Positions 1 through 26,293 are shown, counted from the first letter of the stretch. The stretch is 26,721 nt of DNA from Chloroflexota bacterium (GCA_037440665.1 JBBITS010000003.1:1-26721); one strand, 5' to 3'. Notes: generated by a model from the sequence alone, not told the origin. Numbers and translations: made by a program.

Positions 1-52
1 TCACCGCGGAGACTACACCGTCTTGTTTTTACAGCAATCCTGGGACGCGACC
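1..52. repeat. Left copy of a perfect 52-bp terminal inverted repeat
   Basis: TCACCGCGGAGACTACACCGTCTTGTTTTTACAGCAATCCTGGGACGCGACC is the exact reverse complement of 26670..26721; identity ends at base 53. Confidence 0.97.
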
Positions 53-76
53 CCTTCGAACCATCAGGAGCGCGCA

Positions 77-1339
77 ATGACGACCACCGCCAAGGAGATC
101 TACGAGATCGGCGAAATCCCACCCATCGGGCAGGTGCCCGAGTACATGTACGCCCAGCTCATCCGCCAGAGCCGCCACGGCGACCCCGTCAATGCCTTCC
201 AGATCGAGAAGGTGCGCGTACCCGAACTGAAGCCAGACGAGGTGCTGGTGTTCGTCATGGCCGCCGGCATCAACTTCAACAACGTCTGGGCGGCACGCGG
301 ACTCCCCGTCGACATCGTCAAGCTCCACAAGCAGCAGGGCGACCCCGGCGACGAGGAGGGGTTCCACATCGGCGGCAGCGACGCCTCCGGCATCGTCTAC
401 GCCGTCGGCAGTGAGGTCACCAACGTCAAGGTCGGCGACCGCGTCGTCATCCACTGCGGCATGTGGGACCGCGATGACCCATGGGTGAAGGCCGGCAAAG
501 ACCCCATCATGGCGCCGTCGTGCAAGATCTGGGGCTACGAGTCCAACTGGGGAAGCTTCGCGCAGTTCACCAAGGCCCAGGCCCACCAGTGCCTGCCCAA
601 GGCGGAGCATCTGACGTGGGAGGAGGCCGCCGCCTTCATGCTCGTCGGCGCTACGGCCTACCGCATGCTCACGGGCTGGCCGCCCCACGTAGTCGAGCCC
701 GGCGACGTGGTGCTGGTCTGGGGCGGCTCAGGCGGTCTCGGCTCGATGGCCATCCAGATCACTAAGGCCCTCGGCGGCACACCCGTCGCCGTCGTCTCCA
801 GCGACGAGCGCGGCCAGCACTGCATCAAGCTCGGCGCGAAAGGGTACGTCAACCGCAAGAACTTCAACCACTGGGGCATGATGCCCCACTGGACCGACAC
901 CGAGAAGTACAACGAGTGGGTGATGGGCTGCCGCGCCTTCGGCAAAGCCGTGTGGGACATCCTCGGCGAGCGCAAGAACCCGCGCATCGTGTTCGAGCAC
1001 CCCGGCGAGGACACCGTACCGACGTCGATCTTCGTCTGCGACAATGGCGGCATGGTCGTCATCTGCGCCGGCACGACGGGCTACAACGCCGTGGTCGACC
1101 TGCGCTACCTCTGGATGCGACAGAAGCGGTTCCAGGGCTCGCACTTCGCCAACGACGATCAGGCGGCGGGCATCAACCAGCTCGTCATCGACGGCAAGGT
1201 GAACCCGGCGCTGGCGAAGGTCTACAAGTTCGAGGAGACGGGCCTCTGCCACCAGCTCATGATGGAGAACCGCGCTTCCGAGGGGAACATGGCGGTCCTC
1301 GTCGGCGCGCCGAAACCTGGCCTGAAGGACCTGCCGTAG
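77..1339 (+). CDS. ccr: Crotonyl-CoA carboxylase/reductase (MDR family enoyl-CoA carboxylase/reductase)
   Basis: Motifs [72 protein letters not shown] and GNMAVLV all match the Ccr family. Start placed at ATG 77 behind AGGAG; the TTG at 23 lies inside the repeat. Confidence 0.93.
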
Positions 1340-1387
1340 GAGAACCCAGAACCGGCGGGGCGCAGAGACATCTTCGGAGGCGGCGTC

Positions 1388-1813
1388 ATGACCGACGACA
1401 ACGTCCTCGGCATCAAGGTTGGCGACAGGGCCGATTTCACGAAGACCGTCACCGGTGACGACATCGTGGCGTTCGCGAACGTCACCGGCGATACGAATCC
1501 CTTGCACCTCGACGACGCCTACGCCGCGAAGACGCGCTTCAAGCAACGCATCGCCCACGGGATGCTGTCGGCGGGGTTCATCTCGGCGGCGCTGGGCACG
1601 AAGCTCGCGCCCCACGCCTGCGTCGTCTACCTCAGCCAGAGCATGCGCTTCCAGCGTCCGGTGTTCATCGGCGACACCATGACGGCCACCGTCGAGGTCA
1701 CGAAGGTCGATCCCCAGCGCCGGTTCGTCACGGTCGCCACCACCTGCGCCAACCAGAAGGGCGAGGAGCTTCTGACCGGCGAGGCGATGGTCCTGCTCGA
1801 CCCGGTGGAGTGA
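1388..1813 (+). CDS. MaoC-family (R)-specific enoyl-CoA hydratase (PhaJ/CroR-like)
   Basis: Hydratase-2 motif FANVTGDTNPLHLD...RIAHGML with the Asp/His dyad; GGAGG RBS; hot-dog-fold size of 141 aa. Confidence 0.9.
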   Translation: MTDDNVLGIKVGDRADFTKTVTGDDIVAFANVTGDTNPLHLDDAYAAKTRFKQRIAHGMLSAGFISAALGTKLAPHACVVYLSQSMRFQRPVFIGDTMTATVEVTKVDPQRRFVTVATTCANQKGEELLTGEAMVLLDPVE

Positions 1814-1937
1814 GAGCGGCCACGGCGCTCGACTCCGGCCGGCCACCCAACGACCAATAGACGCGCCTGCCGCTGACTTACGGCTCTGTGCGGCACTCCC
1901 CCACCAGGAGCATCCTGATATCGCAAGGAGGAGCCGC

Positions 1938-2141
1938 ATGCGCACTCCAATCGGACGCAAGCTGCTGGAGATGACGCGGACGCTGCTGACCCTCGGTTTC
2001 GCGCGCCCGCCGGGGCCGCCGGTCGAGCCCATCGCGCGCGAAGAAGAGCCCCTGCAACCACCGCCCGAGCGCCACCTCTCCGAGCAGCGCCACGACGGGG
2101 CCGAGGACCGCGAACGCGCTGAGGGCCGCGAGCCTCGATAG
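1938..2141 (+). CDS. Small hypothetical protein, 67 aa
   Basis: Strong AAGGAGG RBS just upstream of the ATG, GC3-rich codons, fills the gap before the convergent etfB. Confidence 0.6.
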   Translation: MRTPIGRKLLEMTRTLLTLGFARPPGPPVEPIAREEEPLQPPPERHLSEQRHDGAEDRERAEGREPR

Positions 2142-2148
2142 ACCGCAA

Positions 2149-2174
2149 GCCGCTGGTTCCCACGCTACAGCGGC
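2149..2174. terminator. Hairpin between convergent genes, possible terminator
   Basis: GCCGCTG-N12-CAGCGGC stem; no U-tract. Confidence 0.3.
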
Positions 2175-2180
2175 GCCGAT

Positions 2181-2990
2181 TCAGCGTTCCGACAGGTACT
2201 GGCCGATGCGCTCGAGAATCTGGCGCGCCTCGTCCTCCGGCGCGCCGGTGATGAACTCGCGACGCCGCTCCCGCGAGGCCGACTGCCCGACGCCGCCGAC
2301 GATCGTCGCCGAACCCTTGACTCCAACCTCTTCGAGATCGACCCCCAGGTCCTCGGCCGACCACACGGTCACCAGGTCCTGACCCTCGGCCCACGGCCGC
2401 AGCGTCCAGTCGAGAAAGCGCGGCTCATTGACGCCCGTCTTGACCGAGACGACGGCCGGCAGGGGCGCCAGCAGCAGTTCGTGCCCACCCTTGATCTCCC
2501 GCCGCGCCCGCAGGCGGCGGTTCCAGTAGTCGACTTCGAGTTCGATCGCGTACGTCACCTGCGGCGTTCCCAGCCACTCGGCGATGCCGGGCGGCACTTG
2601 CGCCGTCGCTCCGTCCGACGACTCCTCGCCGCAGAGAACCAGCTCGTAGCGGCCGATCTTTTCGATGGCCGCGGCCAGCGTCCGCGACGTGCCGAGGGTG
2701 TCAGCGCCGCCGAAGGCGCGGTCGCTGAGCAGGAAGGCGCGATCGGCGCCCATGCAGAGCGCCAGCCGCAGGTAGCGTTCGAAGAACGGCGGCCCCATGG
2801 AAAGCACGCTGATGCTGCCACCGTGGGCCTGCTTTAACTGAAGCGCCATCTCCAGCGCGTTCATGTCGGGCGGATTGAAGATGGAGCGGGCATTGGCCCG
2901 GTCGAGCGTCATGGTCTCCTGGTTCACCCGCACTTCCTCAGGCATCGGGACGACCTTCATGCAGACGATGGTGTGCATCTCGCTCATCAC
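2181..2990 (-). CDS. etfB: Electron transfer flavoprotein beta subunit (EtfB/FixA)
   Basis: Motifs IVCMKVVP, NPPDMNALE, MGP, MGADRA, FGGADTLGTS, DGATAQVP, NEPR. The start may be GTG 2990, ATG 2987 or ATG 2978. Confidence 0.93.
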   Translation of the reverse strand: MMSEMHTIVCMKVVPMPEEVRVNQETMTLDRANARSIFNPPDMNALEMALQLKQAHGGSISVLSMGPPFFERYLRLALCMGADRAFLLSDRAFGGADTLGTSRTLAAAIEKIGRYELVLCGEESSDGATAQVPPGIAEWLGTPQVTYAIELEVDYWNRRLRARREIKGGHELLLAPLPAVVSVKTGVNEPRFLDWTLRPWAEGQDLVTVWSAEDLGVDLEEVGVKGSATIVGGVGQSASRERRREFITGAPEDEARQILERIGQYLSER

Positions 2991-4007
2991 TTAACCCGTC
3001 ACGGCTCGTGCCCCGGCGATCTGCTCCGCGAGGCAGGCGAGCACGGCGAACATGTCGTCTGTCACGCAGTAATCGGCGTGCTCGAAGATCGGCGCCTCCG
3101 GATCGGTGTTGATCGCCACGACGCATTCGGCCTTGTCGATGCCGACCGTGAAATGAATGGCGCCGCTGATCCCGCAGCAGATCACCAGCTTCGGCTGGGT
3201 GACCACACCCGTCTGCCCGATCTGCCGCGCGCGCGGAATCCATCCGAGGTCGGCCGCCACGCGCGTCCCGCCGATCTCGGCGTCCAGCAGGCCCGCCAGA
3301 CGCTGCGCCAGTTCGAGGTCGCCACGCGCGCCGCGCCCTACCGCGACGACTATCCCGGCGCGCGTCAGGTCTGGCTCCTCGGAAACGGAGCGCTCCAGCA
3401 CGTGGACGCGAAAGTCGGCCGCGTCAAGGCTCGCAGGCAGCGCCCGGATCTCGCCCTTTCGTTTCAGGTCCGGCTCGGGTTGCGCGAAGATGCCGGGCCG
3501 GACGGTCGCCATCTGCGGGCGATGTTCGGGGCAGAGGATCGTAGCTACGATGCCGCCGCCGAAGCCCACGACCTCGCCCGAAAGCAGACGCCGCTCCGGG
3601 TCGATGGTCAGGCCCGTGCAGTCGGCGGTCAGGCCGGTGCGCAGACGCACGGCCAGCCTGCCGGCCAGGTCGCGGCCGTTGGGCGTCGCGCCGAGAAGCA
3701 GCACGTCTGGCTTTCGCTCCAGCGCCAGGTGGTGAACGACAGAGGTGAAAGGCTCGGTCGTGTACACCTGAAGATCGGGATGCTCGACGACCAGCACCTC
3801 GTCTGCGCCGCACGCGACGGCCCGCGCAGGCGAGTCGCCGAGGGCGTAGCCCACCAGCAGCCCCGTCAGCGGGCAGTCCAGCGCGTCAGCCAGTTCCCGC
3901 CCTTTACCAAGCAGCTCCAGCGAGACGCTCTCGAGCTTCCCCTCTTCCTGCTCCAGGAACACCCAGACGCCGCGGGCGTCGGCCGGTCCGTACAGGCTGC
4001 TGGTCAT
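2991..4007 (-). CDS. etfA: Electron transfer flavoprotein alpha subunit (EtfA/FixB) with atypical flavin-contact residues
   Basis: Motifs GRDLAGRLA, GLTADCT, RPQMATVRPG, VAVGRG, QIGQTG, GISGA, AINTDPEAPIF. ATGA overlap with the upstream CCG-protein gene. Confidence 0.93.
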   Translation of the reverse strand: MTSSLYGPADARGVWVFLEQEEGKLESVSLELLGKGRELADALDCPLTGLLVGYALGDSPARAVACGADEVLVVEHPDLQVYTTEPFTSVVHHLALERKPDVLLLGATPNGRDLAGRLAVRLRTGLTADCTGLTIDPERRLLSGEVVGFGGGIVATILCPEHRPQMATVRPGIFAQPEPDLKRKGEIRALPASLDAADFRVHVLERSVSEEPDLTRAGIVVAVGRGARGDLELAQRLAGLLDAEIGGTRVAADLGWIPRARQIGQTGVVTQPKLVICCGISGAIHFTVGIDKAECVVAINTDPEAPIFEHADYCVTDDMFAVLACLAEQIAGARAVTG

Positions 4008-5338
4008 GACGCAACCCCCGCTTCAACCCGCGCCGGCTTGGCGAGCGCCCAGGCCAGTATCTCAGCGACGTCGGCGACCCGGATGCTGGCGTCGCCGGGG
4101 ATGCTGTCCTCGAGGCAGGAGACGCAGTGCGGGCACGCCGAACCGATGATTTCGGCGCCCGTCTCTCGCGCCTCGGCGACGCGCACGCTGGCGAAGCGTT
4201 CGTTGGCGGCGGTCTCCAGCCACATGCGGCCGCCGCCGCCGCCGCAGCACAGCGCCTCCTCGCGGTTGTGGCGCATCTCGAGCAGTTCCACGCCGGGGAT
4301 GCTCGCGAGCACTTCGCGCGGCGAGTCGTAGTCGCCGTTCTGCCGCCCCAAGTAGCACGGGTCGTGGAAGGTCACCTTCAGGGGCAGCTCGCCCTCGACG
4401 CGAAGGCGCCCGCTGGCGATCAGCTCACGCAGGTATTGCGTGTAGTGCAACGCCCTGAACTCCGGCGGCATGTCGAAGTGATGCAGGAACTGATCGAGGC
4501 AGTGTGGCGAGACGGTCACGACCGTTCTCACGCCCAGCTCCCGGAACAGCTTCGAGCCTTCGGCGGCGATGTCGTCGGCGTAGTCCGCGTGCCCGGCGTT
4601 GCGAACGGCGTCGCCGCAACAGGGTTCGCGATCCTTCAGCACGCCGAACTCGACGCCGGCGGCGCGAAGGACCTGTACGACGGCGCGCGCGATCTTCTGG
4701 ATGCGCGGGTCGTAGCTCGCCGTGCACCCGGCGTACAGCAGGACTTCCTGGTCACCCGAGAAATCCGGGAGGTCGAGCCCCTTCATCCAGTCCGAACGCT
4801 GCGATGGCGGCCGGCCGTAGGGATTGCCGTCCCAGTAGACATTCCAGAGCAGCGTAGGGAATCCCTGCGGCTCCTCGCGGTCGCGCCAGGCGAGGCCCCG
4901 GAGGGCCAGAATCACCTCGGGGATGTCCACCCCGCGCGGGCACAGCGCCTCGCAGCGCCCGCACGTCGTACACAACCACACAGCTTCCGGCCAGCCCGGA
5001 GCGCCCATCTGCGCCTCGCGCACCAGGCGGCGGATCAAAACGGGCTCCGACTTCACCTGCCCCCACGGGCAGATCGCCGTGCACACGCCGCACTGGAAGC
5101 ACTGCGCGGCCAGGCCTCGCGTCGCCACGACCACCCTCTCCCAAAGCGCGTCATCGAGCACCAGCACGTCGCCGTCGGGTTGAGAGATGCCCGGGATGGT
5201 CGCGAGGTCCATATCAAGCTTCCTCCTGCCGGCCCGCGTGTACGCGTCGCTGTCTTCCGGCATGGCCGCTTCCTCTCTTGCATCGAGCCACAGCTTCCTG
5301 CGGCCAGCGCGCGTGATGTCGCCATAGGCCGACGTCAT
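4004..5338 (-). CDS. HdrD/GlpC-like Fe-S oxidoreductase (two [4Fe-4S] motifs plus two CCG domains)
   Basis: CFQCGVCTAICP, CTTCGRCEALCP, YAGC...CCG...SPHC, FHDPCYLGR...CCGGGGG...ACPHC. Alternative start at ATG 5212 with an AGGAGG RBS. Confidence 0.9.
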   Translation of the reverse strand: MTSAYGDITRAGRRKLWLDAREEAAMPEDSDAYTRAGRRKLDMDLATIPGISQPDGDVLVLDDALWERVVVATRGLAAQCFQCGVCTAICPWGQVKSEPVLIRRLVREAQMGAPGWPEAVWLCTTCGRCEALCPRGVDIPEVILALRGLAWRDREEPQGFPTLLWNVYWDGNPYGRPPSQRSDWMKGLDLPDFSGDQEVLLYAGCTASYDPRIQKIARAVVQVLRAAGVEFGVLKDREPCCGDAVRNAGHADYADDIAAEGSKLFRELGVRTVVTVSPHCLDQFLHHFDMPPEFRALHYTQYLRELIASGRLRVEGELPLKVTFHDPCYLGRQNGDYDSPREVLASIPGVELLEMRHNREEALCCGGGGGRMWLETAANERFASVRVAEARETGAEIIGSACPHCVSCLEDSIPGDASIRVADVAEILAWALAKPARVEAGVAS

Positions 5339-5340
5339 GG

Positions 5341-8300
5341 CTACACCTTCTCCTCCACGAGATGGCCTTGCCGCCGCAGCACTTCGTCCATTTCGGCGAT
5401 CTTGCGGGCGAACTCTTTACCTTCGGACGCGGAGATCCACGCCAGTTGAAGCCGGTCAGGGTCCAGGCCTTCACGCGTCAGCTTGCGGTGCCACAGCTTG
5501 AACCGCTTGTCGGTCTGAGCGTTCGCGAAGTTGTAGTGGCAGTCCGAGCCGGTGGGCGTCAGCCGGCAGCCCGTGACCAGCACCGCGCCCGCGCCCTTCT
5601 TGAAGGCGTGCATGATGAAGTCCTCTTCCACGCGCGCTGAGCACATGGTGCGGATGATGAGGGCCGACGGCGGGTACTGGATCTTCTCCACGCCCGCCTG
5701 GTCGGCGCCCGCATACGAGCACCAGTTGCAGGCGAAGACGATGGTCTTCTTCTCGGGCTCGCGGGCGAGAGCGGCGTCGATCTGCGCCAGTATCTGCTCC
5801 TTGGTGAAGTACGGCATCTCGATGGCGTCGTAGTTGCACGCAGCCGCGCAGGCGCCGCAGCCCTGGCACGCGGCCTCGATGAACTTCATTTCGCCTTCCT
5901 TCACCTTACCGATGAGTTCGATGGCGCCGAACGGACACGCCTGCACGCAGATGCCGCAGACGATGCACTTGTCCTCGATGAGCCGGGAAGTGATGGGTTC
6001 CTTCTCGATGGTGTCCTGAGCCAGCAGATGCCCGGCCTTGGCGGCGGCGGCCAGCGCCTGCGCCACCGTCTCGCGCACGTCCTTGGGCGCCTGGACGGTT
6101 CCGGCCAGAAAGATGCCCGGCGAGCCCGCCTCGGCAGGGCCCAGTTTCGGGTGACGCTCCAGCAGGAAGCCGTCCTCGCTGTGGGCCACCTTGAGCTGGG
6201 CTGAGATGTCTTCGTCCTGAGGCGTCAGGCCGACGGTGAGAACCAGCGTGTCCGTCGGCGCCTGCAGCGTGCGGTCGCTGAGGTGATCGAGGAACTGGAC
6301 GGCGTGGCCGTCCCACGAGACCGAGGCTTCGGGCGCGCTGTCGGGATCGATGCGGAAGAACTGGACGCCCTTGCGGCCCGCCTCATCGTACAGCTCCTCG
6401 GCGTTGCGGCTGAAGGTGCGTATGTCTCGGTAGAGTACACGCACCTGCTTGCCCTGCTCGCGCAGGCGCAGCGCCTGCCCGATCATCGATTCGCAGCAGT
6501 AGCGCGAGCACCCGGAGCCGTTGCGCCGCGAGCCCACGCAGCCGATGAACGTCACGCGCTCTCCGCGCACCGGATGGCCGCGCTCGATGTCCAGGTTTGT
6601 GACGACGCGCGGATCGTCGCCGTAGCCGAACTCGACGGGCTCGTACGGGCGAGCGCCCATGGCCAGCACGACGGCCCCGGCCCGTATCTCGGCGCCGTCG
6701 GTGAGCCGCGCCGTGAAATTGCCGATGTGACCGCCGATGGTTTCGATCTCCGCGCCAAGGTGCACGGCCACGCCCGCCTCCTGCAACTCGCGCGCCTTCA
6801 CTTCAACGAACTCGCGCGCGGGAATGCCCGCCGGGGCGATCTCGTCGAGGTCGTTGAGCGTGCCGCCGAGGCGGTGCGTTCGCTCCACGAGGTGCGTCTC
6901 GTAACCCTGCGCCGCCAGGTTTGCGGCCGCCGACATGCCGGCGATGCCGCCGCCGATGACCAGCGCCTGCTGCACCATAGGCTGGTGGCTGATCTCCAGC
7001 GGCGCCAGCCGCCGCGCCTTCTCGACGCTCATCCGCACCATGTCGATGGCCTTTTGCGTGGCCTCCTCCTTCGTCTGCTTGTGCACCCAGGAGTCCTGAT
7101 TGCGCAGGTTCGCCATCTCGAGGAGGTACGGGTTCAGGCCCGCTTTGAGCATCACCCGTCTGAAGGTGGCCTCGTGCGTCTTGGGCGAGCACGCGGCGAT
7201 GACGATGCGGTTCGCCCGCGCCTCGCGTAGACGGCGCGCGATCTCGGCCTGCGTCGTGCCCGCGCACGAGAACATCGAGGAGTCGGCGTAGACCACGCCC
7301 TCCATCTGTCGCGCGGCCTCGACCACCGACTCGATGTCGACTACGCCCGCTATGTTGCTCCCGCAGTGACAGATGTTGACCCCGATTCGCACGGTCTCGA
7401 TGTCGTCCTGGGGCTCTCCGGCTTCGGGCTCCGGCCACGTGCGTTCGTCCAGATGGGTCAGCGCCCAGGCCGCTGCCGCGCCCGCTTCGGCGACGCTGTC
7501 GGGGATATCCTTCAGGCCTATCGCGCATCCTGCCGCGTAGACGCCGGAGCGCGTCGTCGCCGAAAGACCGCCCATGCGTTCGCGGCTCTTCACGAACCCG
7601 TCCGTATCGATATCGAAGCCCATCACCCCAGCGAGCCCTTCGAGGCCCGCTGGCGGCCTGGCAGCCGTGGCCAGCACCACCATGTCCACCTCTGCGGTCT
7701 GGACGCGGCCGGCGTCGGTGTCCTCATACCGGACGCTGATCCGATCGCCTGCGGGTTCGACGGAGGCGGGCCGCCCTCTGATGAACCGAGCCCCTTCGTC
7801 ACGCGTGCGCTGGTAGAAGGCATCGAAGCCCTTGCCGTAGGCGCGCATGTCCATGTAGAGCACAGTGACGTCGCCGACACCGTGATCCCGCGCCTGGAAC
7901 GCTTGCTTCACCGAGTACATGCAGCAGAAGCGCGAGCAGTGGCGGTAGAAGCGCACGTCGCGCGAGCCAACGCAGAGGACGAACAGGATGCTCTCTGGGT
8001 GCTGGCCGTTGGACGGCTTCACGATCTCGCCGCCGGTGGGGCCCGCCGAAGTCAGCAGGCGCTCGAACTCCATCGATGTCAGCACGTCGGGGTGGGCGCC
8101 GTACCCGAACCCGCGCAGGAGCGCCGGGTCGATGAGGTCGAAGCCCGTCGCGACGATGGCCGAACCGACCGTGCGCTCGACGACGCGCTCGCGCGGCTGC
8201 ATGAAGTCGATGACCTTCGGCAGGCAGGCCTCCATGCAGCGGCCGCAGGGCAGGTAGTTGGGCGGATCGTTCAGGCAGTGCTCCAGGTCGATGATATACG

Positions 8301-8727
8301 CGCCGGGCACTGCCTGCGGGAACGGCGTGTAGATGGCCTTGCGGGAGGCCATCGCCACGTCGAACTCGTTGGGCAGGACGACGGGGCAGGCCTCGACGCA
8401 GAGGTTGCAGCGCGTGCAGTCGTCCTCGACAAACCGCGACTTGTGGCGGATGCGCACGCGGAAGTCGCCGGGCTCGCCTTCGAAGCCGACGACCTCGGCC
8501 GGCGACAGAATCTCGATGTTGGGGTGCTCGCTGACCTCGGACAGCTTCGGAGCCTCGATGCAGATGGAGCAGTCGAGGGTGGGGAAGTTCTTGTCCAGGC
8601 CCGCCATCTTGCCGCCGATGGCCGGGCTGGCCTCGACCAGAACCACGCGGGCGCCCGATTCGGCGAGGTCCAGCGCCGCCTGCACCCCGGCGATGCCACC
8701 GCCCACGACCAGCACGGAATCGCTCAC
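5341..8727 (-). CDS. hdrA: Tandem HdrA-HdrA-MvhD fusion flavoprotein (heterodisulfide reductase subunit A family), 1128 aa
   Basis: Two GGGIAG FAD domains; DKNFPTLDCSIC; inserted ferredoxin; CVGSR...CSRxCC twice; internal CHCGSNIAG domain; C-terminal ferredoxin with two [4Fe-4S] motifs; MvhD motifs ACNWCSY, MCSARV, GC...DCHY. Confidence 0.92.
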   Translation of the reverse strand: MSDSVLVVGGGIAGVQAALDLAESGARVVLVEASPAIGGKMAGLDKNFPTLDCSICIEAPKLSEVSEHPNIEILSPAEVVGFEGEPGDFRVRIRHKSRFVEDDCTRCNLCVEACPVVLPNEFDVAMASRKAIYTPFPQAVPGAYIIDLEHCLNDPPNYLPCGRCMEACLPKVIDFMQPRERVVERTVGSAIVATGFDLIDPALLRGFGYGAHPDVLTSMEFERLLTSAGPTGGEIVKPSNGQHPESILFVLCVGSRDVRFYRHCSRFCCMYSVKQAFQARDHGVGDVTVLYMDMRAYGKGFDAFYQRTRDEGARFIRGRPASVEPAGDRISVRYEDTDAGRVQTAEVDMVVLATAARPPAGLEGLAGVMGFDIDTDGFVKSRERMGGLSATTRSGVYAAGCAIGLKDIPDSVAEAGAAAAWALTHLDERTWPEPEAGEPQDDIETVRIGVNICHCGSNIAGVVDIESVVEAARQMEGVVYADSSMFSCAGTTQAEIARRLREARANRIVIAACSPKTHEATFRRVMLKAGLNPYLLEMANLRNQDSWVHKQTKEEATQKAIDMVRMSVEKARRLAPLEISHQPMVQQALVIGGGIAGMSAAANLAAQGYETHLVERTHRLGGTLNDLDEIAPAGIPAREFVEVKARELQEAGVAVHLGAEIETIGGHIGNFTARLTDGAEIRAGAVVLAMGARPYEPVEFGYGDDPRVVTNLDIERGHPVRGERVTFIGCVGSRRNGSGCSRYCCESMIGQALRLREQGKQVRVLYRDIRTFSRNAEELYDEAGRKGVQFFRIDPDSAPEASVSWDGHAVQFLDHLSDRTLQAPTDTLVLTVGLTPQDEDISAQLKVAHSEDGFLLERHPKLGPAEAGSPGIFLAGTVQAPKDVRETVAQALAAAAKAGHLLAQDTIEKEPITSRLIEDKCIVCGICVQACPFGAIELIGKVKEGEMKFIEAACQGCGACAAACNYDAIEMPYFTKEQILAQIDAALAREPEKKTIVFACNWCSYAGADQAGVEKIQYPPSALIIRTMCSARVEEDFIMHAFKKGAGAVLVTGCRLTPTGSDCHYNFANAQTDKRFKLWHRKLTREGLDPDRLQLAWISASEGKEFARKIAEMDEVLRRQGHLVEEKV

Positions 8728-8730
8728 GGC

Positions 8731-9270
8731 CTACGCCTCCTGACCCGCGTGCGTGTACCCCGCATCGAAGGCCTCCATGTTCAGCGCCACGAAGCGCTCC
8801 CGCACCGACGACCGGATGGCTTCCTCCATCGCCGGGCGGCTGACAGCCTGCGTGACCGCCGTGAAGAACCCCAGCATCACCACGTTGGCCGCCATGCGGT
8901 TCCCCAGGCGTTCGGCGATCGCCGTCGCCGGGATTTTGTGAATGGGCCAGCCCAGACCAGCGGGCAGCTCCACCAAGGTTTCGTCGACGAGCACTTGGCA
9001 GTTCTCGGCGAGGTCGGAGACGTACTTGTGAGCGGCCTCCTGCGACATCACCACGAGGACGTCCGGTTGGCTGACCATCGGGTAGTCGATGGGCATGTCG
9101 TCCACCACGAGCTGCGCCGCGCAGGCGCCACCGCGCGCCTCCGGCCCGTACGACTGCGTCACCACCGCCTCCTTGCCGTCGTGCAACGCCGCCGCCCGGC
9201 CCGTGATCAGCCCCGCCAGGATGATTCCCTGGCCACCGAAGCCGGCGAAGCGGATCTCCCGGCGGCTCAT
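8731..9270 (-). CDS. korC: 2-oxoacid:ferredoxin oxidoreductase gamma subunit (KorC/OorC-like)
   Basis: MSRREIRFAGFGGQG, QSYGPEARGG, ANVVMLG. True start is ATG 9270 (ATGA overlap with the beta gene), inside the longer track ORF 8731..10017. Confidence 0.92.
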   Translation of the reverse strand: MSRREIRFAGFGGQGIILAGLITGRAAALHDGKEAVVTQSYGPEARGGACAAQLVVDDMPIDYPMVSQPDVLVVMSQEAAHKYVSDLAENCQVLVDETLVELPAGLGWPIHKIPATAIAERLGNRMAANVVMLGFFTAVTQAVSRPAMEEAIRSSVRERFVALNMEAFDAGYTHAGQEA

Positions 9271-10094
9271 CCGTCTTCCTCCCACTCGCCGTACGGCGTC
9301 CGTTCGATGTCGATGAAGTTGCCCAGAATCAGCGGCTTGTGCGACCGCAGGTCGATGCCGCAGTCCTTCAGGTCGGCGGTGTCGTCGACGACGCACTCGA
9401 GCTTGTAGAGCTGCATCTCGTCGAGGCCCTCGCCGAGGTCGTTGGGGCGGCCAAAGCCGATGGGGCACGGCGCCAGAACCTCGACGAACGTGAGGCCACG
9501 CTTCTGGAACACGCGCTGGATGGCCTCCTCGAGCTGACGGACGTGCAGCGCCGACCAGCGGGCGACGAACACCGCCCCCAGCGACGCCATCAGGTGCACC
9601 AGGTTCAGGGCGTCTTCGGGGTTGCCGTAGGGCGTCGTCGACGTGATGGCGCCCCTGGGCGTCGTCGGACCGAGCTGCCCACCCGTCATGCCATAGTTGA
9701 AGTTGTTCACGCAGATGATGTTCAGGTCGATGTTGCGGCGGGCGGCGTGCAGGATGTGGTTCCCGCCGATGGCGAAGAGATCGCCGTCGCCGCTGATGAC
9801 GGTGACCTCCAGCTCCGGGTTCCCGAGCTTCAGGCCCGTGGCGAACGGTATCGCGCGCCCGTGCGTCGTGTGGAAGGAATCGATGTTCACGTAGCCGGGG
9901 ACGCGGCCCGTGCAGCCGATGCCCGACACGATGACGTGCTTGTCGGCCGGTATCGCCGACTGGACCATCGCCTGCACGTAGCAATTCGTTATCGGGCCAA
10001 GACCGCAGCCAGGACACCAGATGTGAGGCAGCCTCTCAGACCGGAGATACTGGTCGACCGGATGCACTTCGACGATCTGCTCAGCTCGCGCCAT
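9267..10094 (-). CDS. korB: 2-oxoacid:ferredoxin oxidoreductase beta subunit (TPP-binding)
   Basis: WCPGCG, SGIGC, HTTHGRA, GDGD...NN TPP motif, YGMTGGQ..PTT, final PCP. Confidence 0.93.
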   Translation of the reverse strand: MARAEQIVEVHPVDQYLRSERLPHIWCPGCGLGPITNCYVQAMVQSAIPADKHVIVSGIGCTGRVPGYVNIDSFHTTHGRAIPFATGLKLGNPELEVTVISGDGDLFAIGGNHILHAARRNIDLNIICVNNFNYGMTGGQLGPTTPRGAITSTTPYGNPEDALNLVHLMASLGAVFVARWSALHVRQLEEAIQRVFQKRGLTFVEVLAPCPIGFGRPNDLGEGLDEMQLYKLECVVDDTADLKDCGIDLRSHKPLILGNFIDIERTPYGEWEEDG

Positions 10095-11250
10095 CGCGCG
10101 CCTCCTTGATCGCCCTGACGATGCGCTCCGGGCGAAGCATCTCGCCGCCGCCGTGGTGCACGCCGAGCACGCGCTTCGACGAAAACCGTTGCACCTGCGT
10201 CGCCACCTGGCCGAGGTTCAGCTCGGCCACGACGAAGGCCTTCACGCGCTCCGACGTGTGCGACATCTGGGCCCCGGCGAAGGGCCACAGCGTGATCAGA
10301 CGCAGCAGGCCCGCCTTCAGCCCCTGCGCCCTCGCGACGTTGACGGCGTGCCGCGCCGAACGCGCGCTCGATCCGAACGAGACGACGCACACCTCGGCGT
10401 CGTCCAGCAGGTACTCCTCCCACTCCACGATGCGCTCCGCGTTGCGGATGATCTTGTCCGACAGCCGGCGCACGAGGCGGTCGTGCACGTCGGCGCTGGT
10501 CACCGGGTAGCCGCGCTCGTCGTGCGTCAGGCCCGTCATGTGGATGCGATAGCCCTCGCCGGCCAGAGGCATCGGCGGGACCAGGCTGCCGTCTACCGCC
10601 TGATAGATCAGCCCCTTGCCCGGCGGGAACGACGGCTTCGGACGCCCGGCGCGCTCGATCGCCTCCGCGGCCGGGATGATGACGCGCTCCGTCATGTGGC
10701 CCACGACCTCGTCGGAGAGGACGAACACGGGCTGCCGGTAGGCGTCGGCGGCGTTGAACGCCTTGATGGTGAGGTCGAACATCTCCTGGGGCGAGGCGGG
10801 AGCGTAGGCGATGGGCTCGTAGTCGCCGTGCGAGCCCCACTTCGCCTGCATCACGTCGGCCTGGCCGGCCAACGTCGGCAGGCCCGTCGAGGGTCCGCCC
10901 CGCTGCACGTTCACGACGACGCACGGCGTCTCGGTGATGAACGCCAGGCCCAGGTTCTCTTGCATCAGCGTGAAGCCGGGGCCGGACGTCGCCGTCATCG
11001 CCCGGCGTCCCGCCCACGACGCGCCCAGGATGCAGTTCATGCTCGCCAGCTCGTCCTCCATCTGGATGTAGTGGCCGCCCGTCCGGGGCAGGCGTTGGGC
11101 CATGCGCTCGGCGATTTCGGTAGACGGAGTGATCGGGTAGCCGGCGAAGAAGTCGCAGCCGGCGGCCAGCGCGCCCTCGGCGCAGGCGATGTCGCCGTTC
11201 ATGAAGTGCTGGCCCGTGAGCACCGTGGGCGCCGTTGCGACAGACGTCAC
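10081..11250 (-). CDS. korA: 2-oxoacid:ferredoxin oxidoreductase alpha subunit
   Basis: GYPITPSTE, QMEDELA, ATSGPG, QRGGPSTGLPT..QAD; single-domain 389-aa alpha typical of four-subunit OorDABC/KorDABC enzymes. Confidence 0.93.
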   Translation of the reverse strand: MTSVATAPTVLTGQHFMNGDIACAEGALAAGCDFFAGYPITPSTEIAERMAQRLPRTGGHYIQMEDELASMNCILGASWAGRRAMTATSGPGFTLMQENLGLAFITETPCVVVNVQRGGPSTGLPTLAGQADVMQAKWGSHGDYEPIAYAPASPQEMFDLTIKAFNAADAYRQPVFVLSDEVVGHMTERVIIPAAEAIERAGRPKPSFPPGKGLIYQAVDGSLVPPMPLAGEGYRIHMTGLTHDERGYPVTSADVHDRLVRRLSDKIIRNAERIVEWEEYLLDDAEVCVVSFGSSARSARHAVNVARAQGLKAGLLRLITLWPFAGAQMSHTSERVKAFVVAELNLGQVATQVQRFSSKRVLGVHHGGGEMLRPERIVRAIKEARDGAS

Positions 11251-11525
11251 GGGCCGCCTCCCACGTTCTCGGTGAAGATGGCGAACTCGGGGCAGATGAC
11301 CTGACAGAAGCCGCAGTTGACGCAGGCTTCCTCTTTGCCCGCGCTGACGACGGGGTAGTGGTAGCCCTTGACGTTCATGCCCTGTGACTCCTCGAGGACG
11401 TCCTCGGGGCAGAACTCGATGCAGAACTTGCAGCCCTTGCAGCGGTCAGGGATTGTGTAGACCTGTCCGCGCGGCAGAACCTGCCGTCCGAGGTCGAGAG
11501 GGCGGCGGACGAACGCGGCCACCAT
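11247..11525 (-). CDS. korD: Ferredoxin-like delta subunit (two [4Fe-4S]) of the 2-oxoacid oxidoreductase
   Basis: CKGCKFCIEFCP and CVNCGFCQVICP; GTGA overlap with the alpha gene. Start at ATG 11525 preferred over 11561 but uncertain. Confidence 0.88.
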   Translation of the reverse strand: MVAAFVRRPLDLGRQVLPRGQVYTIPDRCKGCKFCIEFCPEDVLEESQGMNVKGYHYPVVSAGKEEACVNCGFCQVICPEFAIFTENVGGGP

Positions 11526-11742
11526 GGCTGCAACCGCCTTACCGGCCCGCCGCGGGAACACGAGCCACCGCTATAGCCCTGCCGGATGGCAGGTACCAGC
11601 GACTCCCGGCAGACGCACCAGGGCGTCTTAAGGTTCTGAGACCATGCTGTATCGGCGGGGTAGCTTCAGAAAAGGGCCGAACGTACCAGAGCGAACCATA
11701 TCCATTAGCTGGCAGCCCTGTGGGGGAGTTACCCGGGGGCGC

Positions 11743-22614: not shown

Positions 22615-23505
22615 GTGAAACGATTCGACTACGCCGCGCCCGCTTCCCTGCGGGAAGCCATCGACACGCTGCGCCAACGCGCGGACGGCGTGCGGCTGCT
22701 CGCGGGCGGCACCGACCTCCTTCCACAGATCAAGGAGGGCGGTCTCTGGCCCTCCCACGTAGTGAGCCTGCGCCGAGTACCCGAGCTGCGCGGCATCTCA
22801 TTCGATCCCTCGACGGGCCTGCGCGTCGGCGCGGCCGAGCTGCTCTCCGACGTCGCCGCTCACGAGGTAGTGAGCCGCCACTACCAGGCGCTGGCTGAAG
22901 GCGCGGGCATCGTCGGCTCCGTGCAGACCCGGAACATGGGAACCATAGGCGGCAACGTCTGCAACGCCGCGCCCTCGGCCGACACGGCCCCGCCCCTGCT
23001 CGTCTTCGACGCCGCGGTGGTCATCGCCAGCCGAGACGGCGAGCGGCAGCTCCCTCTGAGCGAGTTCTTCCTCGGTCCCGGCCGCACAGCTCTGGCGCCG
23101 GGCGAGATCGCCGTCGCGCTGGAGCTGCCGCCGCCAGCCGAACGCTCGGGCAGCGTCTACCAGCGCCACACGCCGAGGAAGATCATGGACATCGCCGTCG
23201 TGGGCGTCGCCTGCCGCCTCGTACTCGCCCCGGACGAGAGCATGGCCGAGGCGCGCATCGCCCTCGGCGCCGTCGCGCCCACATCCATACGCTGCCCGGA
23301 TGCCGAGGCGCTGCTGCAGGGCCGCGCGCCTTCAGTCGCACTATTCGAGCAGGCCGCAGATGCAGCGCGCGAGGCCAGCAGCCCCATCACCGACGTACGC
23401 GGCTCGGCGGAATTCCGGCGCGAACTCGTGCGCGTCATGACGGCGCGATGCCTCGCAATCGCTGCTGAGCGCGCGCGTCTCTTGAGCGAGAGGACTTGCA
23501 GGTGA
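22615..23505 (+). CDS. Xanthine/CO dehydrogenase family FAD-binding medium subunit (CoxM-like)
   Basis: LLAGGTDL, QTRNMGTIGGN, SADTAP, DVRGSAEFR. Confidence 0.92.
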   Translation: MKRFDYAAPASLREAIDTLRQRADGVRLLAGGTDLLPQIKEGGLWPSHVVSLRRVPELRGISFDPSTGLRVGAAELLSDVAAHEVVSRHYQALAEGAGIVGSVQTRNMGTIGGNVCNAAPSADTAPPLLVFDAAVVIASRDGERQLPLSEFFLGPGRTALAPGEIAVALELPPPAERSGSVYQRHTPRKIMDIAVVGVACRLVLAPDESMAEARIALGAVAPTSIRCPDAEALLQGRAPSVALFEQAADAAREASSPITDVRGSAEFRRELVRVMTARCLAIAAERARLLSERTCR

Positions 23506-23981
23506 AGCGACCCATCACCCTCAAGATCAACGGCCAGCGCCACGATGTGCTCGTCGAGCCCAGCGCCACGCTGCTCGAAGCCGTGCGCGATCAGGCGGGA
23601 CTTATGGGCGCGAAGGAAGGCTGCGGCACCGGCGACTGCGGCGCCTGCTCGATGATCGTCGACGGGCGGCTGGTGACCTCGTGCCTTATGCTGGCCGTCG
23701 AAGCCGAGGGCAGCGACATCACCACCATCGAGGGCCTGGCCCGCGACGGCCAGCTTCATCCGCTGCAGCAGGCGTTCATCGACCTGGGCGCCGTGCAGTG
23801 CGGCTACTGCATCCCCGGCATGATCCTGGCTGGCAAAGCGCTGCTGGACGCCAACCCGAACCCTGCGCCCGACGAGATCCGCCGCGCCATCGCCGGCAAC
23901 CTCTGCCGCTGCACGGGCTACACGAAGATCGTCGAGGCCATCGCCGCCGCCGCAACGCAACTCCAGGGAGCCACGCCATGA
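23502..23981 (+). CDS. Small subunit with two [2Fe-2S] sites (CoxS-like)
   Basis: CGTGDCGAC...C, QCGYC, NLCRCTGY; GTGA overlap with the medium subunit gene. Confidence 0.93.
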   Translation: MKRPITLKINGQRHDVLVEPSATLLEAVRDQAGLMGAKEGCGTGDCGACSMIVDGRLVTSCLMLAVEAEGSDITTIEGLARDGQLHPLQQAFIDLGAVQCGYCIPGMILAGKALLDANPNPAPDEIRRAIAGNLCRCTGYTKIVEAIAAAATQLQGATP

Positions 23982-26293
23982 CCACCACCGCCGAACCCAC
24001 GCGGACGGAACACGCCGTCGTCGGCCAGCGCATCCCACGCATTGAGGGCCGCAAGAAAGTCACCGGGCAGTCAGTGTACGCCGCCGACGTTTCCCTGCCC
24101 GGTATGCTCTACGCGAAGCTCCTGCACGCGCCCCACGCCCACGCGCGCATCAAGGGCATCGACACGTCCCGCGCTCGCATGCTCGAAGGCGTCGAGAGCG
24201 TCGTGACCGCCAGCGACCTACCGCAGTTCGAGGCGCGCCGCCGGTCCAACCGCGCTTACGTGCTCCTCGCGAGCGACGAGGTCGTCTTCGCAGGACAGCC
24301 CGTGGCGGCAGTCGTCGCAACGTCCTCGGCCATCGCCGATGAGGCGTTGGACCTCATCGCCGTCGAGTACGAAGAGCTGCCGGTCGTACTGGACCCCGTC
24401 GCAGCCATGGACCCGGGCGCGCCCCTGGCTCGCCAGCCCATCGAGGAGATCGATCGGTCGGAGGCGCGGGGCCACGCGACCGTAGACGTTCGCGAGGAAG
24501 AGGGCGCGGGCAAACCCACTAACGTCGCGTCGCAGGTGCGCTTCACCCGCGGCGACGTCGCACAGGGGTTCGCCGAGGCGGATGCCGTTGTCGAAGACAC
24601 ATGGCGCACGCCGTTCATGCACCAGGGCTACATCGAGCCACACGCGACCGTCGCCGGCTTCGACCCCGTGTCGGGCGAACTCACCCTGTACACGGGCACG
24701 CAGGGCCAGTTCTTCGTGCGGGACCAGATCAGCAATATGCTCCGCATACCGGAGACCAAGCTGCGGGTCGTCGGCATGGAGCTGGGCGGCGGCTTCGGCG
24801 GCAAGGTGTTCCTGACGCAGGCCCTGGCGTCGGTGCTATCGTTCATCGCGAAGCGGCCCGTCAAGCTCGTGTACACGCGGACCGAGGAAATGACCTCGGC
24901 CACGCCTTCAGGTGGCTGCGTCGCCGAAGTGAAGCTGGGCATGAAGCGCGACGGGACGATCACGGCGCTTGACGCCCGGCTCATATACGACACCGGAGCG
25001 TTCCCAGGCGCCTCGGCCGTCGTCGGAGCGATCCTGCTGGGTGGCTACTACCGCTTCCCTAACCTCGACATCAGGTCCTACGAGGTGCTGACCAACAAGG
25101 TCAGTGTCGGCGCCATCCGCGCGCCCGCCGCCCACAACGCCACGTTCGCCATCGAGTCGGCGCTGGACGAAGCATGCCGCCGGCTTGGCCTCGACCCGGT
25201 GGAGACGCGACTGAAGAACGCCGTCGCCGAGGGCGACGAGATGCCCACCCAACAGAAGTACCCGCGCATCGGCCTCGTCGAAACGCTGCAGGCCGCCCGC
25301 GAGAGCGCCGCCTGGCGAGAACGAGAGGCGTGGAAGACCGCTGCCCCGCCAGGGACGAAGCGCGGCGTGGGCCTTGCCATCGGCGGCTGGCTGGGCGGAC
25401 TACAGCCCGCCAGCGCCGTCGTTGAACTCAACGGCGACGGCACCATCAACGTCGTCGTCGGCGCCAACGACATCACCGGGACCAACACGGCGTTCGCGCA
25501 GATCGCCGCTGAGGAGCTGGCGGTCGACGTGAGCGAGGTCAGCGTCGTCACGGGTGATACGCGGACCGCGCCCTTCGCCGGCATGAGCGCGGGATCGAAG
25601 ACGCTGTTCACCGTCGGCCGCGCCGTGAAGGAAGCGGCCGAGGACGCCCGCCGCCAGATCATTGCTGTAGCCCGCGAGCGCCTGGGCGCGACCGAGGAGG
25701 ACGAGCTGGAGCTTTCAGGCGGAGAGGTCCGCATCAAGGGTCAGCCCGATAAGGCGCTCTCGTACCGCCGCCTGGGCGGCATCACGACGGGGTTTGGCGC
25801 GGCATATGCGCCCATCATCGGGCGAGGCTCCATCACGGCCCGCCGCCAGGCGCCAGGCTTCGCCGCCCACGTCGCCGCCGTCGAGATCGACGACGCCACC
25901 GGCGAAGTGACGCTCCGGCGCTGGACAACGGCGCAGGACGTCGGGTTCGCCGTCAACCCGCTGAACGTCGAGGGGCAGCTTCAGGGCGGTTCAGCGCAGG
26001 GCATCGGCTCCGGGCTCTGGGAGGAGATGGTGTTCGACGTACAGGGCCACCTGCGCAACCCGAGCCTGCTCGACTACCGCATGCCTACCGCCGCCGACCT
26101 GCCCGACATCGAGACGATCCTCGTTGAGACGCCATCGGAGGACGGCCCCTACGGGGCGCGCGGAGTCGGCGAGCCGTCCATCGTGCCGGGCGCGGCGGCC
26201 GTCGCCAACGCCGTCCGCGACGCCCTGGGCGTCCGCGTAAACGACGCGCCCATCACGCCCGAACGCGTCCTGCGCGCTTTGGGGCGGATCTAG
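23978..26293 (+). CDS. Molybdopterin-binding large subunit of the xanthine oxidase family (CoxL-like, not form I CODH)
   Basis: KVTGQSVY, HQGYIEPH, GGGFGGK, AIRAPA loop, GQLQGG..QG.G, GARGVGEP. ATG 23978 has an ATGA overlap with the small subunit gene. Confidence 0.92.
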   Translation: MTTTAEPTRTEHAVVGQRIPRIEGRKKVTGQSVYAADVSLPGMLYAKLLHAPHAHARIKGIDTSRARMLEGVESVVTASDLPQFEARRRSNRAYVLLASDEVVFAGQPVAAVVATSSAIADEALDLIAVEYEELPVVLDPVAAMDPGAPLARQPIEEIDRSEARGHATVDVREEEGAGKPTNVASQVRFTRGDVAQGFAEADAVVEDTWRTPFMHQGYIEPHATVAGFDPVSGELTLYTGTQGQFFVRDQISNMLRIPETKLRVVGMELGGGFGGKVFLTQALASVLSFIAKRPVKLVYTRTEEMTSATPSGGCVAEVKLGMKRDGTITALDARLIYDTGAFPGASAVVGAILLGGYYRFPNLDIRSYEVLTNKVSVGAIRAPAAHNATFAIESALDEACRRLGLDPVETRLKNAVAEGDEMPTQQKYPRIGLVETLQAARESAAWREREAWKTAAPPGTKRGVGLAIGGWLGGLQPASAVVELNGDGTINVVVGANDITGTNTAFAQIAAEELAVDVSEVSVVTGDTRTAPFAGMSAGSKTLFTVGRAVKEAAEDARRQIIAVARERLGATEEDELELSGGEVRIKGQPDKALSYRRLGGITTGFGAAYAPIIGRGSITARRQAPGFAAHVAAVEIDDATGEVTLRRWTTAQDVGFAVNPLNVEGQLQGGSAQGIGSGLWEEMVFDVQGHLRNPSLLDYRMPTAADLPDIETILVETPSEDGPYGARGVGEPSIVPGAAAVANAVRDALGVRVNDAPITPERVLRALGRI

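Follow-up and report, generated by a model that had tools for sequence, protein, structure and literature searches.

P0001 is an 1128-aa protein encoded in a 26,721-nt window of a Chloroflexota bacterium (the window being the whole stretch of DNA analyzed), in which two complementary, non-identical halves of the heterodisulfide reductase (Hdr) subunit HdrA are joined in a single chain that ends in an MvhD domain. Its gene belongs to a unit of eight genes, fdx-korABC-hdrAA::mvhD-hdrD-etfAB, which lie on one strand, overlap or abut one another, and are almost invariant among related loci; besides P0001 the unit encodes a 2-oxoacid:ferredoxin oxidoreductase (OFOR), an HdrD-like protein (P0003), and an electron-transferring flavoprotein (ETF, EtfAB). 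P0001 is probably a fused HdrA heterodimer of the type of BamE from class II benzoyl-CoA reductase, with MvhD attached, and would serve as the electron-splitting core of a soluble eight-subunit complex. It is likewise judged probable that the eight proteins form one physical complex, with the ETF on the high-potential arm and the OFOR on the low-potential arm; NAD(P)H is a doubtful candidate for the third substrate. The architecture of P0001 and the roles of its modules as described below are very probably correct. No published description of an OFOR-Hdr-Etf unit was found in the open-access literature.

Architecture and predicted cofactors of the fused HdrA chain

Alignment to the Methanothermococcus HdrA chain 5ODC_A (phmmer, 1.7e-180) confirmed the division into half-modules that an earlier note had proposed from the nucleotide sequence. 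Residues 3-370 corresponded to HdrA 144-509, comprising the flavin adenine dinucleotide (FAD) core and the inserted ferredoxin; residues 444-611 to HdrA 2-169, comprising the N-terminal CHCG domain and the start of a second core; and residues 822-985 to HdrA 483-648, comprising the end of that core and the C-terminal ferredoxin. Residues 990-1121 matched MvhD in solved structures (phmmer). Module 1 has the FAD domain with the inserted ferredoxin and lacks the N-terminal domain and the C-terminal ferredoxin, while module 2 has the N-terminal domain, a FAD core without the insert, and the C-terminal ferredoxin. The absence of the N-terminal domain from module 1 is genuine, since the GxGxxG motif opens the module at residue 9 and the OFOR gamma gene abuts it upstream. 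The P0001 start codon is a GTG 3 nt past the korC stop, with an AGGAGG sequence about 8-13 nt upstream of the GTG, and the 3′ end of the gene lies 2 nt ahead of the ATG of the next gene. When the two cores were aligned locally with each other, the BLOSUM62 score was 241 and an insert of about 80 residues proved to be missing from module 2. The second core is also without the DCSIC motif of module 1 and carries G750/Q751 at the position of the flavin lysine. An identical sequence is on record in a public protein collection, together with more than 100 full-length relatives of 1122-1180 aa and 63-83% identity.

The cofactor content suggested by the earlier note, about seven [4Fe-4S] clusters, one [2Fe-2S] cluster, and two FAD, was confirmed by motif count. 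Of 36 cysteines, 35 fall within motifs for seven [4Fe-4S] clusters (two in the inserted ferredoxin, one in the first core, one in the N-terminal domain, one in the second core, and two in the C-terminal ferredoxin) and one [2Fe-2S] cluster, and the two GxGxxG motifs give the two FAD. The HdrA core motif C-x(9-12)-C-x3-CC was found twice, and the inserted ferredoxin has a 7-residue insertion within its second cluster motif. Nearly all cluster cysteines were invariant in a 46-member family alignment, to which the following conservation figures also refer. K274 was invariant, C53, C56, and Q751 were at least 90% conserved, and the five cysteines of the MvhD domain were invariant. C53, C56, K274, and all cluster cysteines were also invariant in double HdrAs of about 42% identity from other gene contexts. 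The MvhD domain departs from three solved MvhD chains by the four-residue insertion that the earlier note had pointed out (GC-x8-CHY in P0001 vs. GC-x4-CHY), and the residues around it (C1054, R1055, L1056, D1062, C1063, H1064, and Y1065) were invariant.

Each subunit of the solved HdrA homodimer contributes its Cys197 to the N-domain cluster of the other, which is thereby completed (PMC9012536). In P0001 the Cys197 equivalent is present in module 1 only and the N-terminal domain in module 2 only, so that the N-domain cluster would form only with a packing like that of the HdrA dimer; from these residues, the two modules probably pack as a pseudo-dimer. By analogy with characterized HdrA proteins, the FAD of module 1 is likely the bifurcating flavin and that of module 2 likely a non-bifurcating, structural one. 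An AlphaFold2 model of P0001 built from the 46-sequence alignment had a mean pLDDT of 83.6 and a pTM of 0.84, the latter compatible with a compact predicted chain. A Foldseek search with this model retrieved full HdrA chains with TM scores of 0.71-0.74 on the target and about 33% identity, presumably through module 2, and truncated HdrA chains of approximately 430-450 residues with TM scores of 0.87-0.92 and 41-45% identity, presumably through module 1.

The curated model NF040770 (HdrA2) scored best for all three parts of P0001, and the summed score exceeds its threshold (1124.6 bits vs. a cut-off of 1100), so that by name P0001 would be the HdrA2 subunit of a true CoM-S-S-CoB heterodisulfide reductase. 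However, this total was summed over three stretches scoring 469, 485, and 160 bits, with model positions 140-231 matched twice; the unit has no HdrB or HdrC; the first CCG cluster of the HdrD-like partner is degenerate; most carriers are bacteria or non-methanogenic archaea; and P0001 was the sole HdrA homologue found in the 84%-complete host genome. Such an identity is extremely improbable.

QmoA and QmoB of sulfate reducers form an asymmetric HdrA-like pair whose longer member ends in an MvhD-like domain. The earlier note had accordingly read P0001 as a fused QmoAB-like dimer; on this view it would belong to sulfur metabolism, as a menaquinol-linked module from which QmoC and Apr have been lost. 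The topologies agree, in that a short HdrA-like part precedes a longer one ending in MvhD (on the Qmo side as generally known), and a split version of the chain exists (439 aa, 653 aa, and FlpD). However, the best models for both modules were HdrA2 and HdrA, the partners are OFOR, an HdrD-like protein, and Etf, and the carriers are mostly not sulfate reducers. QmoC, AprAB, and Sat were absent, as the earlier note had stated for QmoC and Apr, both from the window and from 80 related loci, these being the best of at least 562 pattern-matched relatives in a scan of one genome per species. The complementary HdrA halves and the probable pseudo-dimer were retained from that interpretation and its anchoring in QmoAB was not, BamE and the fused HdrAs being closer; descent from a Qmo system is very improbable.

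The eight-gene unit and its partner proteins

The order and strand of the unit were kept across bacteria and archaea in the related loci with enough flanking sequence, amounting to 61 loci on the Kor side and 56 on the Etf side (Table 1). A ninth conserved gene that might encode a donor to MvhD or a terminal acceptor was not identified among the flanking open reading frames (ORFs) within 5 kb in the 80 loci, in which no family occurred at more than seven loci. The OFOR alpha subunit was much nearer the Kor than the Por or Vor models, and the best matches of the beta, gamma, and delta subunits were to Kor/OGOR-type models, each below its cut-off. The divergence of the eight proteins was correlated (Spearman 0.64-0.87, with 0.28 for KorC), although the related genomes are not independent. 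The window has a G+C content of approximately 67% and spurious long ORFs are frequent; one of these, a 428-aa ORF, is a high-G+C artifact in which only the last 180 residues are OFOR gamma and the stretch ahead of them overlaps korB in a different reading frame.

The invariant linkage within the operon makes the OFOR the likeliest bound partner of the low-potential arm. Alternatively, Hdr, the HdrD-like protein, and Etf could form a complex that does not include the OFOR, and the co-transcribed OFOR would supply free reduced ferredoxin for con- or bifurcation among ferredoxin, ETF, and NAD. The small ferredoxin of the unit scores under the OGOR-delta cut-off (60 vs. 125 bits) and is a possible free carrier, the KGOR of Geobacter is a separate enzyme that feeds reduced ferredoxin to class II benzoyl-CoA reductase (bioRxiv 10.64898/2026.04.10.717634), and HdrA2 accepts reduced ferredoxin directly (PMC5296606). 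On the other hand, the gene order is invariant with packed or overlapping genes in both bacteria and archaea, the divergence of the Kor proteins follows that of HdrAA, and three other OFOR alpha genes in the genome could provide ferredoxin. An arrangement with a detached OFOR is therefore considered unlikely.

EtfAB was compared with solved Etf proteins, the bifurcating references being CarDE, Bcd-Etf, FixAB, and LctBC. EtfB matched these at 1.5e-47 to 1.4e-37 vs. 5.6e-20 to 1e-16 for canonical Etfs, and EtfA at 1.8e-76 to 1.7e-58 vs. about 1e-29 or weaker. The EtfB motif D-G-x-T-x-Q-V was conserved across 65 sequences. By these sequence criteria the EtfAB of the unit is of the bifurcating type (group 2).

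P0003 contains two cubane motifs and two CCG domains. Both cubane motifs and the second CCG motif with its five cysteines were invariant in its family (n = 72), and the first CCG is degenerate, with Ser277 in place of the first cysteine of C-P-x-C in 69 of the 72 members. The best solved relative was the mycobacterial EtfD (9OJN, 3.8e-52), for which the second CCG cluster has been proposed to take electrons from ETF (PMC13083937). The degenerate first CCG together with the kinship to EtfD speaks for an electron relay to ETF rather than a site of heterodisulfide reduction. The 5′ end of the P0003 gene also contains a 24-nt direct repeat with its copies 75 nt apart, producing a doubled TRAGRRKL peptide. 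Homologues of 384-402 aa lack the N-terminal extension (about 40-60 residues) in which the repeat falls, and the repeat looks like a local 75-bp duplication.

The host genome further contains genes for another EtfAB pair, three more OFOR alpha-type genes, and cofD (contigs C148, C37, C262, C165, and C97); a [NiFe] hydrogenase and an ETF:quinone oxidoreductase (ETF-QO) domain were not found in this 84%-complete genome. By analogy with HdrA2, F420H2 was considered as a general third substrate and rejected: the host has cofD, but only 22 of the 43 carrier genomes do. Carriers from the Elusimicrobiota, Planctomycetota, Thermoplasmata, and Coatesbacteria yielded no cofD, although the genomes surveyed are metagenome assemblies in which absences are soft.

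Beyond the unit, two genes run convergently toward the end of etfB and are not conserved in the related loci; they encode a crotonyl-CoA carboxylase/reductase, which may extend past the 5′ end of the window, and a MaoC-type enoyl-CoA hydratase. The other side of the window holds a large signaling protein and subunits of a molybdenum hydroxylase. The CoxL-like large subunit (870 aa) is extended at its N-terminus by about 125 residues ahead of the hammerhead domain.

Table 1. Positions of P0001, its domains and motifs, the other genes of the eight-gene unit, and further features of the window (nt, counted from the first nucleotide of the window).
Feature	Position	Strand	Basis or remark
P0001, double HdrA + MvhD fusion, 1128 aa	5341..8727	-	Structure and profile matches, start and stop context
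Module 1, aa 1-425, thioredoxin reductase (TrxR)-like FAD core = HdrA 144-~560, GxGxxG at aa 9	7453..8727	-	Alignment
DCSIC Cys pair C53/C56 = HdrA Cys194/Cys197; BamE Cys59/Cys62 by position	8560..8571	-	Module 1 only
Inserted ferredoxin, aa 100-172, 2x[4Fe-4S], C104/107/110/114 + C151/161/164/168	8212..8430	-	Alignment, motifs
Module 1 core cluster motif C252/C264/C268/C269 + K274 (= HdrA Lys409, flavin-N5 lysine)	7906..7974	-	Alignment
Acidic inter-module linker, aa 426-443	7399..7452	-	Coil in AlphaFold2 model
Module 2 N-terminal HdrA domain, aa 444-575, C453/C455 (CHCG), C488, C513	7003..7398	-	Alignment
Module 2 TrxR-like FAD core, aa 576-912, GxGxxG at aa 592, C730/C740/C744/C745	5992..7002	-	Alignment
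C-terminal ferredoxin, aa 913-990, 2x[4Fe-4S], C921/924/927/931 + C954/957/960/964	5758..5991	-	Alignment, motifs
MvhD/FlpD domain, aa 991-1128, Cys 1000/1003/1029/1054/1063	5344..5757	-	PF02662 6.5e-40; solved MvhD chains 1e-27 to 6e-34
GC-x8-CHY stretch of MvhD, aa 1054-1065, 4-residue insertion	5533..5568	-	Comparison with solved MvhD chains
OFOR delta-type 2x[4Fe-4S] ferredoxin, first gene of the unit	11247..11561	-	59/61 related loci
OFOR alpha, Kor-type	10081..11250	-	NF006412 554 bits vs. cut-off 411; 60/61 loci
OFOR beta, thiamine pyrophosphate (TPP)-binding	9267..10094	-	61/61 loci
OFOR gamma	8731..9273	-	61/61 loci; true start 9273
HdrD-like P0003, 444 aa	4004..5338	-	56/56 loci
EtfA, bifurcating-type	2991..4007	-	56/56 loci
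EtfB, bifurcating-type, motif D-G-x-T-x-Q-V	2181..2990	-	56/56 loci
428-aa ORF	8731..10017	-	High-G+C artifact
24-nt direct repeat	5217..5240 and 5292..5315		5′ end of the P0003 gene
Crotonyl-CoA carboxylase/reductase	2..1339	+	TIGR01751 562 bits vs. cut-off 379
MaoC-type enoyl-CoA hydratase	1388..1813	+	
Signaling protein, 1569 aa	17125..21834	+	GAF, five PAS, GGDEF, EAL
Molybdenum hydroxylase subunit, CoxM-like, FAD-binding	22615..23505	+	
Molybdenum hydroxylase subunit, CoxL/xanthine dehydrogenase-like, molybdopterin	23681..26293	+	

Proposed electron paths

Module 1 carries the full set of features required in HdrA for the bifurcating flavin, namely the FAD motifs, the core cluster, Lys274, and C53/C56, in addition to the inserted ferredoxin, and Cys56 of this module would complete the N-domain cluster of module 2, which also contributes the C-terminal ferredoxin and has lost the flavin lysine. 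By homology with methanogen HdrA and BamE, the high-potential electron may pass from the core cluster of module 1 via the HdrD-like protein to the alpha-FAD of the dedicated EtfAB, and the low-potential electron from the N-domain cluster to the inserted ferredoxin. The Kor-type OFOR may be joined to this low-potential arm via its delta ferredoxin, as suggested by the invariant operon and by thermodynamics. Its placement would parallel that of formylmethanofuran dehydrogenase in the methanogen supercomplexes and of BamBC in benzoyl-CoA reductase.

The donor would have a potential of about -320 mV, with NAD(P)H as the most likely compound, and would be coupled reversibly to ETF (about 0 mV) and to the acyl-CoA + CO2/2-oxoacid couple (about -500 to -560 mV). 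The mean of the potentials of the ETF and 2-oxoacid couples lies near that of NAD(P)H and therefore fits a reversible coupling of NAD(P)H to ETF and a 2-oxoacid synthase. Either the bifurcating-type Etf or HdrAA/MvhD itself could be the point of entry for NAD(P)H. Running one way, the complex would drive reductive carboxylation; running the other way, it would confurcate electrons from OFOR and ETF.

The OFOR might instead be the donor, docked at the MvhD/C-terminal ferredoxin, which is the site of hydrogenase or formate dehydrogenase in methanogens; the bifurcating FAD would then receive its electrons from the oxidation of a 2-oxoacid, with ETF (and NAD+) as the high-potential acceptor and free ferredoxin as the low-potential one. 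The MvhD is fused in P0001, the OFOR is the sole other catalytic enzyme in the unit, and a related cluster in the Dehalococcoidia has a donor module, MvhG and MvhA, as the MvhD partner. However, a donor at -500 mV paired with ETF at 0 mV wastes most of the energy or needs an acceptor far below ferredoxin, none of which is encoded, and in both Hdr-Fwd and class II benzoyl-CoA reductase the enzyme of the difficult reduction occupies the inserted-ferredoxin arm. A donor role for the OFOR is thus quite improbable.

Several points weigh against the proposal that NAD(P)H is coupled to ETF and OFOR within one complex. A recognizable NAD(P)H site was not seen in P0001 and the terminal high-potential acceptor is not encoded within the eight-gene unit. 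Furthermore, a bifurcating-type Etf alone can couple NADH, ferredoxin, and a high-potential acceptor, leaving the need for HdrAA unexplained. The OFOR, if bound to the complex, could sit at the inserted ferredoxin or at the MvhD/C-terminal ferredoxin, and the supposed likeness to BamE rests on residue numbers quoted in a preprint.

It is possible, though short of probable, that the unit represents an uncharacterized, self-contained electron-bifurcating machine present in many phyla of bacteria and archaea, with the OFOR hard-wired to the low-potential arm and a bifurcating-type ETF attached to the high-potential arm via an EtfD/BamD-like protein. If so, NAD(P)H could drive the reductive carboxylation of acyl-CoA or, conversely, electrons from a 2-oxoacid could raise ETF-level electrons to NAD(P)H, and neither free low-potential ferredoxin nor a membrane or hydrogenase would be required.

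Distribution and comparison with known systems

The architecture is not rare, with full-length relatives in the genomes of at least 80 species of bacteria and archaea. The best 80 relatives were essentially full length where the contig allows. The Chloroflexota carriers include Dehalococcoidia, Anaerolineae, Thermoflexia, and Chloroflexia; other bacterial carriers belong to the Acidobacteriota, Rokubacteria, Planctomycetota, Elusimicrobiota, Zixibacteria, and Coatesbacteria; and the archaeal carriers are Thermoplasmata, Nitrososphaeria-related archaea, and a Halanaeroarchaeum. Of 301 evenly sampled Chloroflexota genomes, 42 had a strong match, most of these being more distant (35-44% identity) yet co-linear double HdrAs. 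The earlier note had allowed that the architecture might be a common HdrA subtype with a known function; a common subtype it is, but this operon has no known function.

Double HdrAs were also identified with other partners. A complete 1.75-Mb genome of the same class contains the cluster hdrC-hdrB-[double HdrA]-mvhD-mvhG-mvhA-hycI (L094, G276:C1:1137000-1155500, 5425-13515), in which the double HdrA (1009 aa) is co-linear with P0001 and 43% identical; the fused platform in this Dehalococcoidia cluster is thus paired with a Mvh-type [NiFe] hydrogenase. Another Chloroflexota genome encodes a co-linear double HdrA of 1037 aa and 42% identity with metV, metF, an HdrD-like gene, and folD (L095, G025:C34:10000-21730, 229-9537), which is the Moorella-type MetFV-Hdr arrangement. 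In the split relative mentioned above (L092, 1889-10082), the gene of the short HdrA overlaps that of the longer one and is followed by a 262-aa FlpD protein, long like BamF; the neighbors are an 815-aa HdrA-MvhD fusion and a FrhB-like gene. The fused asymmetric HdrA is thus a widespread subtype that acts as a platform with exchangeable partners.

In a phylogenetic tree, module 1 clustered (100/98 support) with short HdrAs of about 430 aa near the canonical HdrAs, and module 2 formed a separate long-branch clade. A recent internal duplication was rejected, module 1 being nearer to free-standing HdrAs than to module 2, and the placement of the two modules indicates that the P0001 chain is a fusion of an old heterodimer pair. 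A natural split within the close family was likewise rejected, as its short members are contig-end fragments or come from loci with several broken operon genes. At one such locus (L090) korA, korC, and hdrAA are broken, the last into three pieces, and at another (L091) hdrAA is cut in the middle of a module; these splits are probably assembly-error frameshifts or decay instead of natural fission. A genuine split relative occurs only in the more distant clade.

The best-understood cases of HdrA-type flavin-based electron bifurcation are those of methanogens, joined very recently by that of benzoyl-CoA reductase. In the methanogen HdrABC-MvhAGD and Hdr-Fwd/Fmd complexes (5ODC, 7BKB, and 8RVU), the fold and cofactor wiring of each module resemble those of P0001, Cys197 is shared across the dimer, and the low-potential arm is wired directly to a CO2-fixing enzyme. 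They differ in having a homodimer of complete HdrA, with MvhD, HdrB, and HdrC as separate proteins and with a donor that is either a hydrogenase or a formate dehydrogenase, whereas P0001 is one asymmetric chain. HdrA2 of Methanosarcina acetivorans is an HdrA-MvhD fusion that needs no hydrogenase and is fed by a diffusible carrier, either F420H2 or ferredoxin (Yan et al., 2017; PMC5296606). It shares the MvhD fused at the C-terminus, but is a single HdrA module acting with HdrB2C2 on CoM-S-S-CoB, and P0001 has an extra N-terminal module. The likeness to QmoA/QmoB is topological only, as P0001 differs in its partners and host range and occurs without QmoC, Apr, and Sat.

The closest described relative of P0001 is BamE, not QmoAB. 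BamE of the Geobacter metallireducens class II benzoyl-CoA reductase is a fused HdrA dimer with clusters E1-E7, a bifurcating FAD in TrxR1 (Lys280), a non-bifurcating structural FAD in TrxR2 (Gln768), and the pair Cys59-Cys62; BamF is its MvhD-like adaptor, the HdrD-like BamD passes the high-potential electron to ETF (BamOP), and BamD and most of its homologues have a Cys-to-Ser exchange in the distal D4 cluster (bioRxiv 10.64898/2026.04.10.717634). Compared through the published residue numbers, C53/C56, K274, and Q751 of P0001 are co-linear with Cys59/62, Lys280, and Gln768, and both proteins have seven [4Fe-4S] clusters and two FAD, in P0001 by motif count. Both systems have an MvhD-type adaptor, an HdrD-like partner with a CCG cluster disrupted by Cys-to-Ser that hands electrons to ETF, and a low-potential arm leading through the inserted ferredoxin to a bound reductase, although for P0001 the transfer to ETF and the bound reductase are predictions. 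In contrast, the MvhD of P0001 is fused and of normal length apart from the four-residue insertion, whereas BamF is a separate, selenocysteine-containing protein that exceeds it in length by more than 100 aa. The Chloroflexota unit has neither BamGHI (NADH/ferredoxin input) nor BamBC (tungsten reductase), having a four-subunit OFOR instead, and its Etf is within the operon and of bifurcating type. P0003 resembles EtfD (9OJN) in its two cubane motifs, two CCG domains, a first CCG site with four ligands and not five, and an ETF partner; however, EtfD is a membrane protein with heme that passes electrons to menaquinone, and the P0003 alignment covers only its soluble iron-sulfur/CCG region.

The idea of a fused HdrA pairing with itself as a heterodimer has already been published, for tandem or fused HdrAs of anaerobic methanotrophic (ANME) archaea and the HdrA of the Moorella MetFV-HdrABC-MvhD system, which show complementary loss of the N-domain and Cys197 (Chadwick et al., 2022; PMC9012536). 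As in P0001, one half of these proteins has the N-domain and the other has Cys197. The order differs, as the N-domain half comes first in the published proteins whereas the Cys197-bearing half without N-domain comes first in P0001 and its relatives of 42-43% identity, and the partners are MetFV, FrhB, and others there and OFOR and Etf for P0001.

The current annotations “HdrA2,” “hydrogenase iron-sulfur subunit,” and “FAD-dependent oxidoreductase” do not suit P0001-type genes. Being compact, self-contained, and present in at least 80 species of both prokaryotic domains, the OFOR-Hdr-ETF unit lends itself to study as a candidate new bifurcating enzyme. An enzyme of this kind could account for how electrons of about -500 mV are supplied or disposed of at the 2-oxoacid/acyl-CoA step without a hydrogenase, or how ETF is re-oxidized anaerobically. 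Fused asymmetric HdrAs of this type were seen within one bacterial class in the company of Mvh hydrogenase, of MetFV, and of OFOR and ETF; the fused HdrA is of a kind already known, whereas its eight-gene operon is a variant for which no published description was found.

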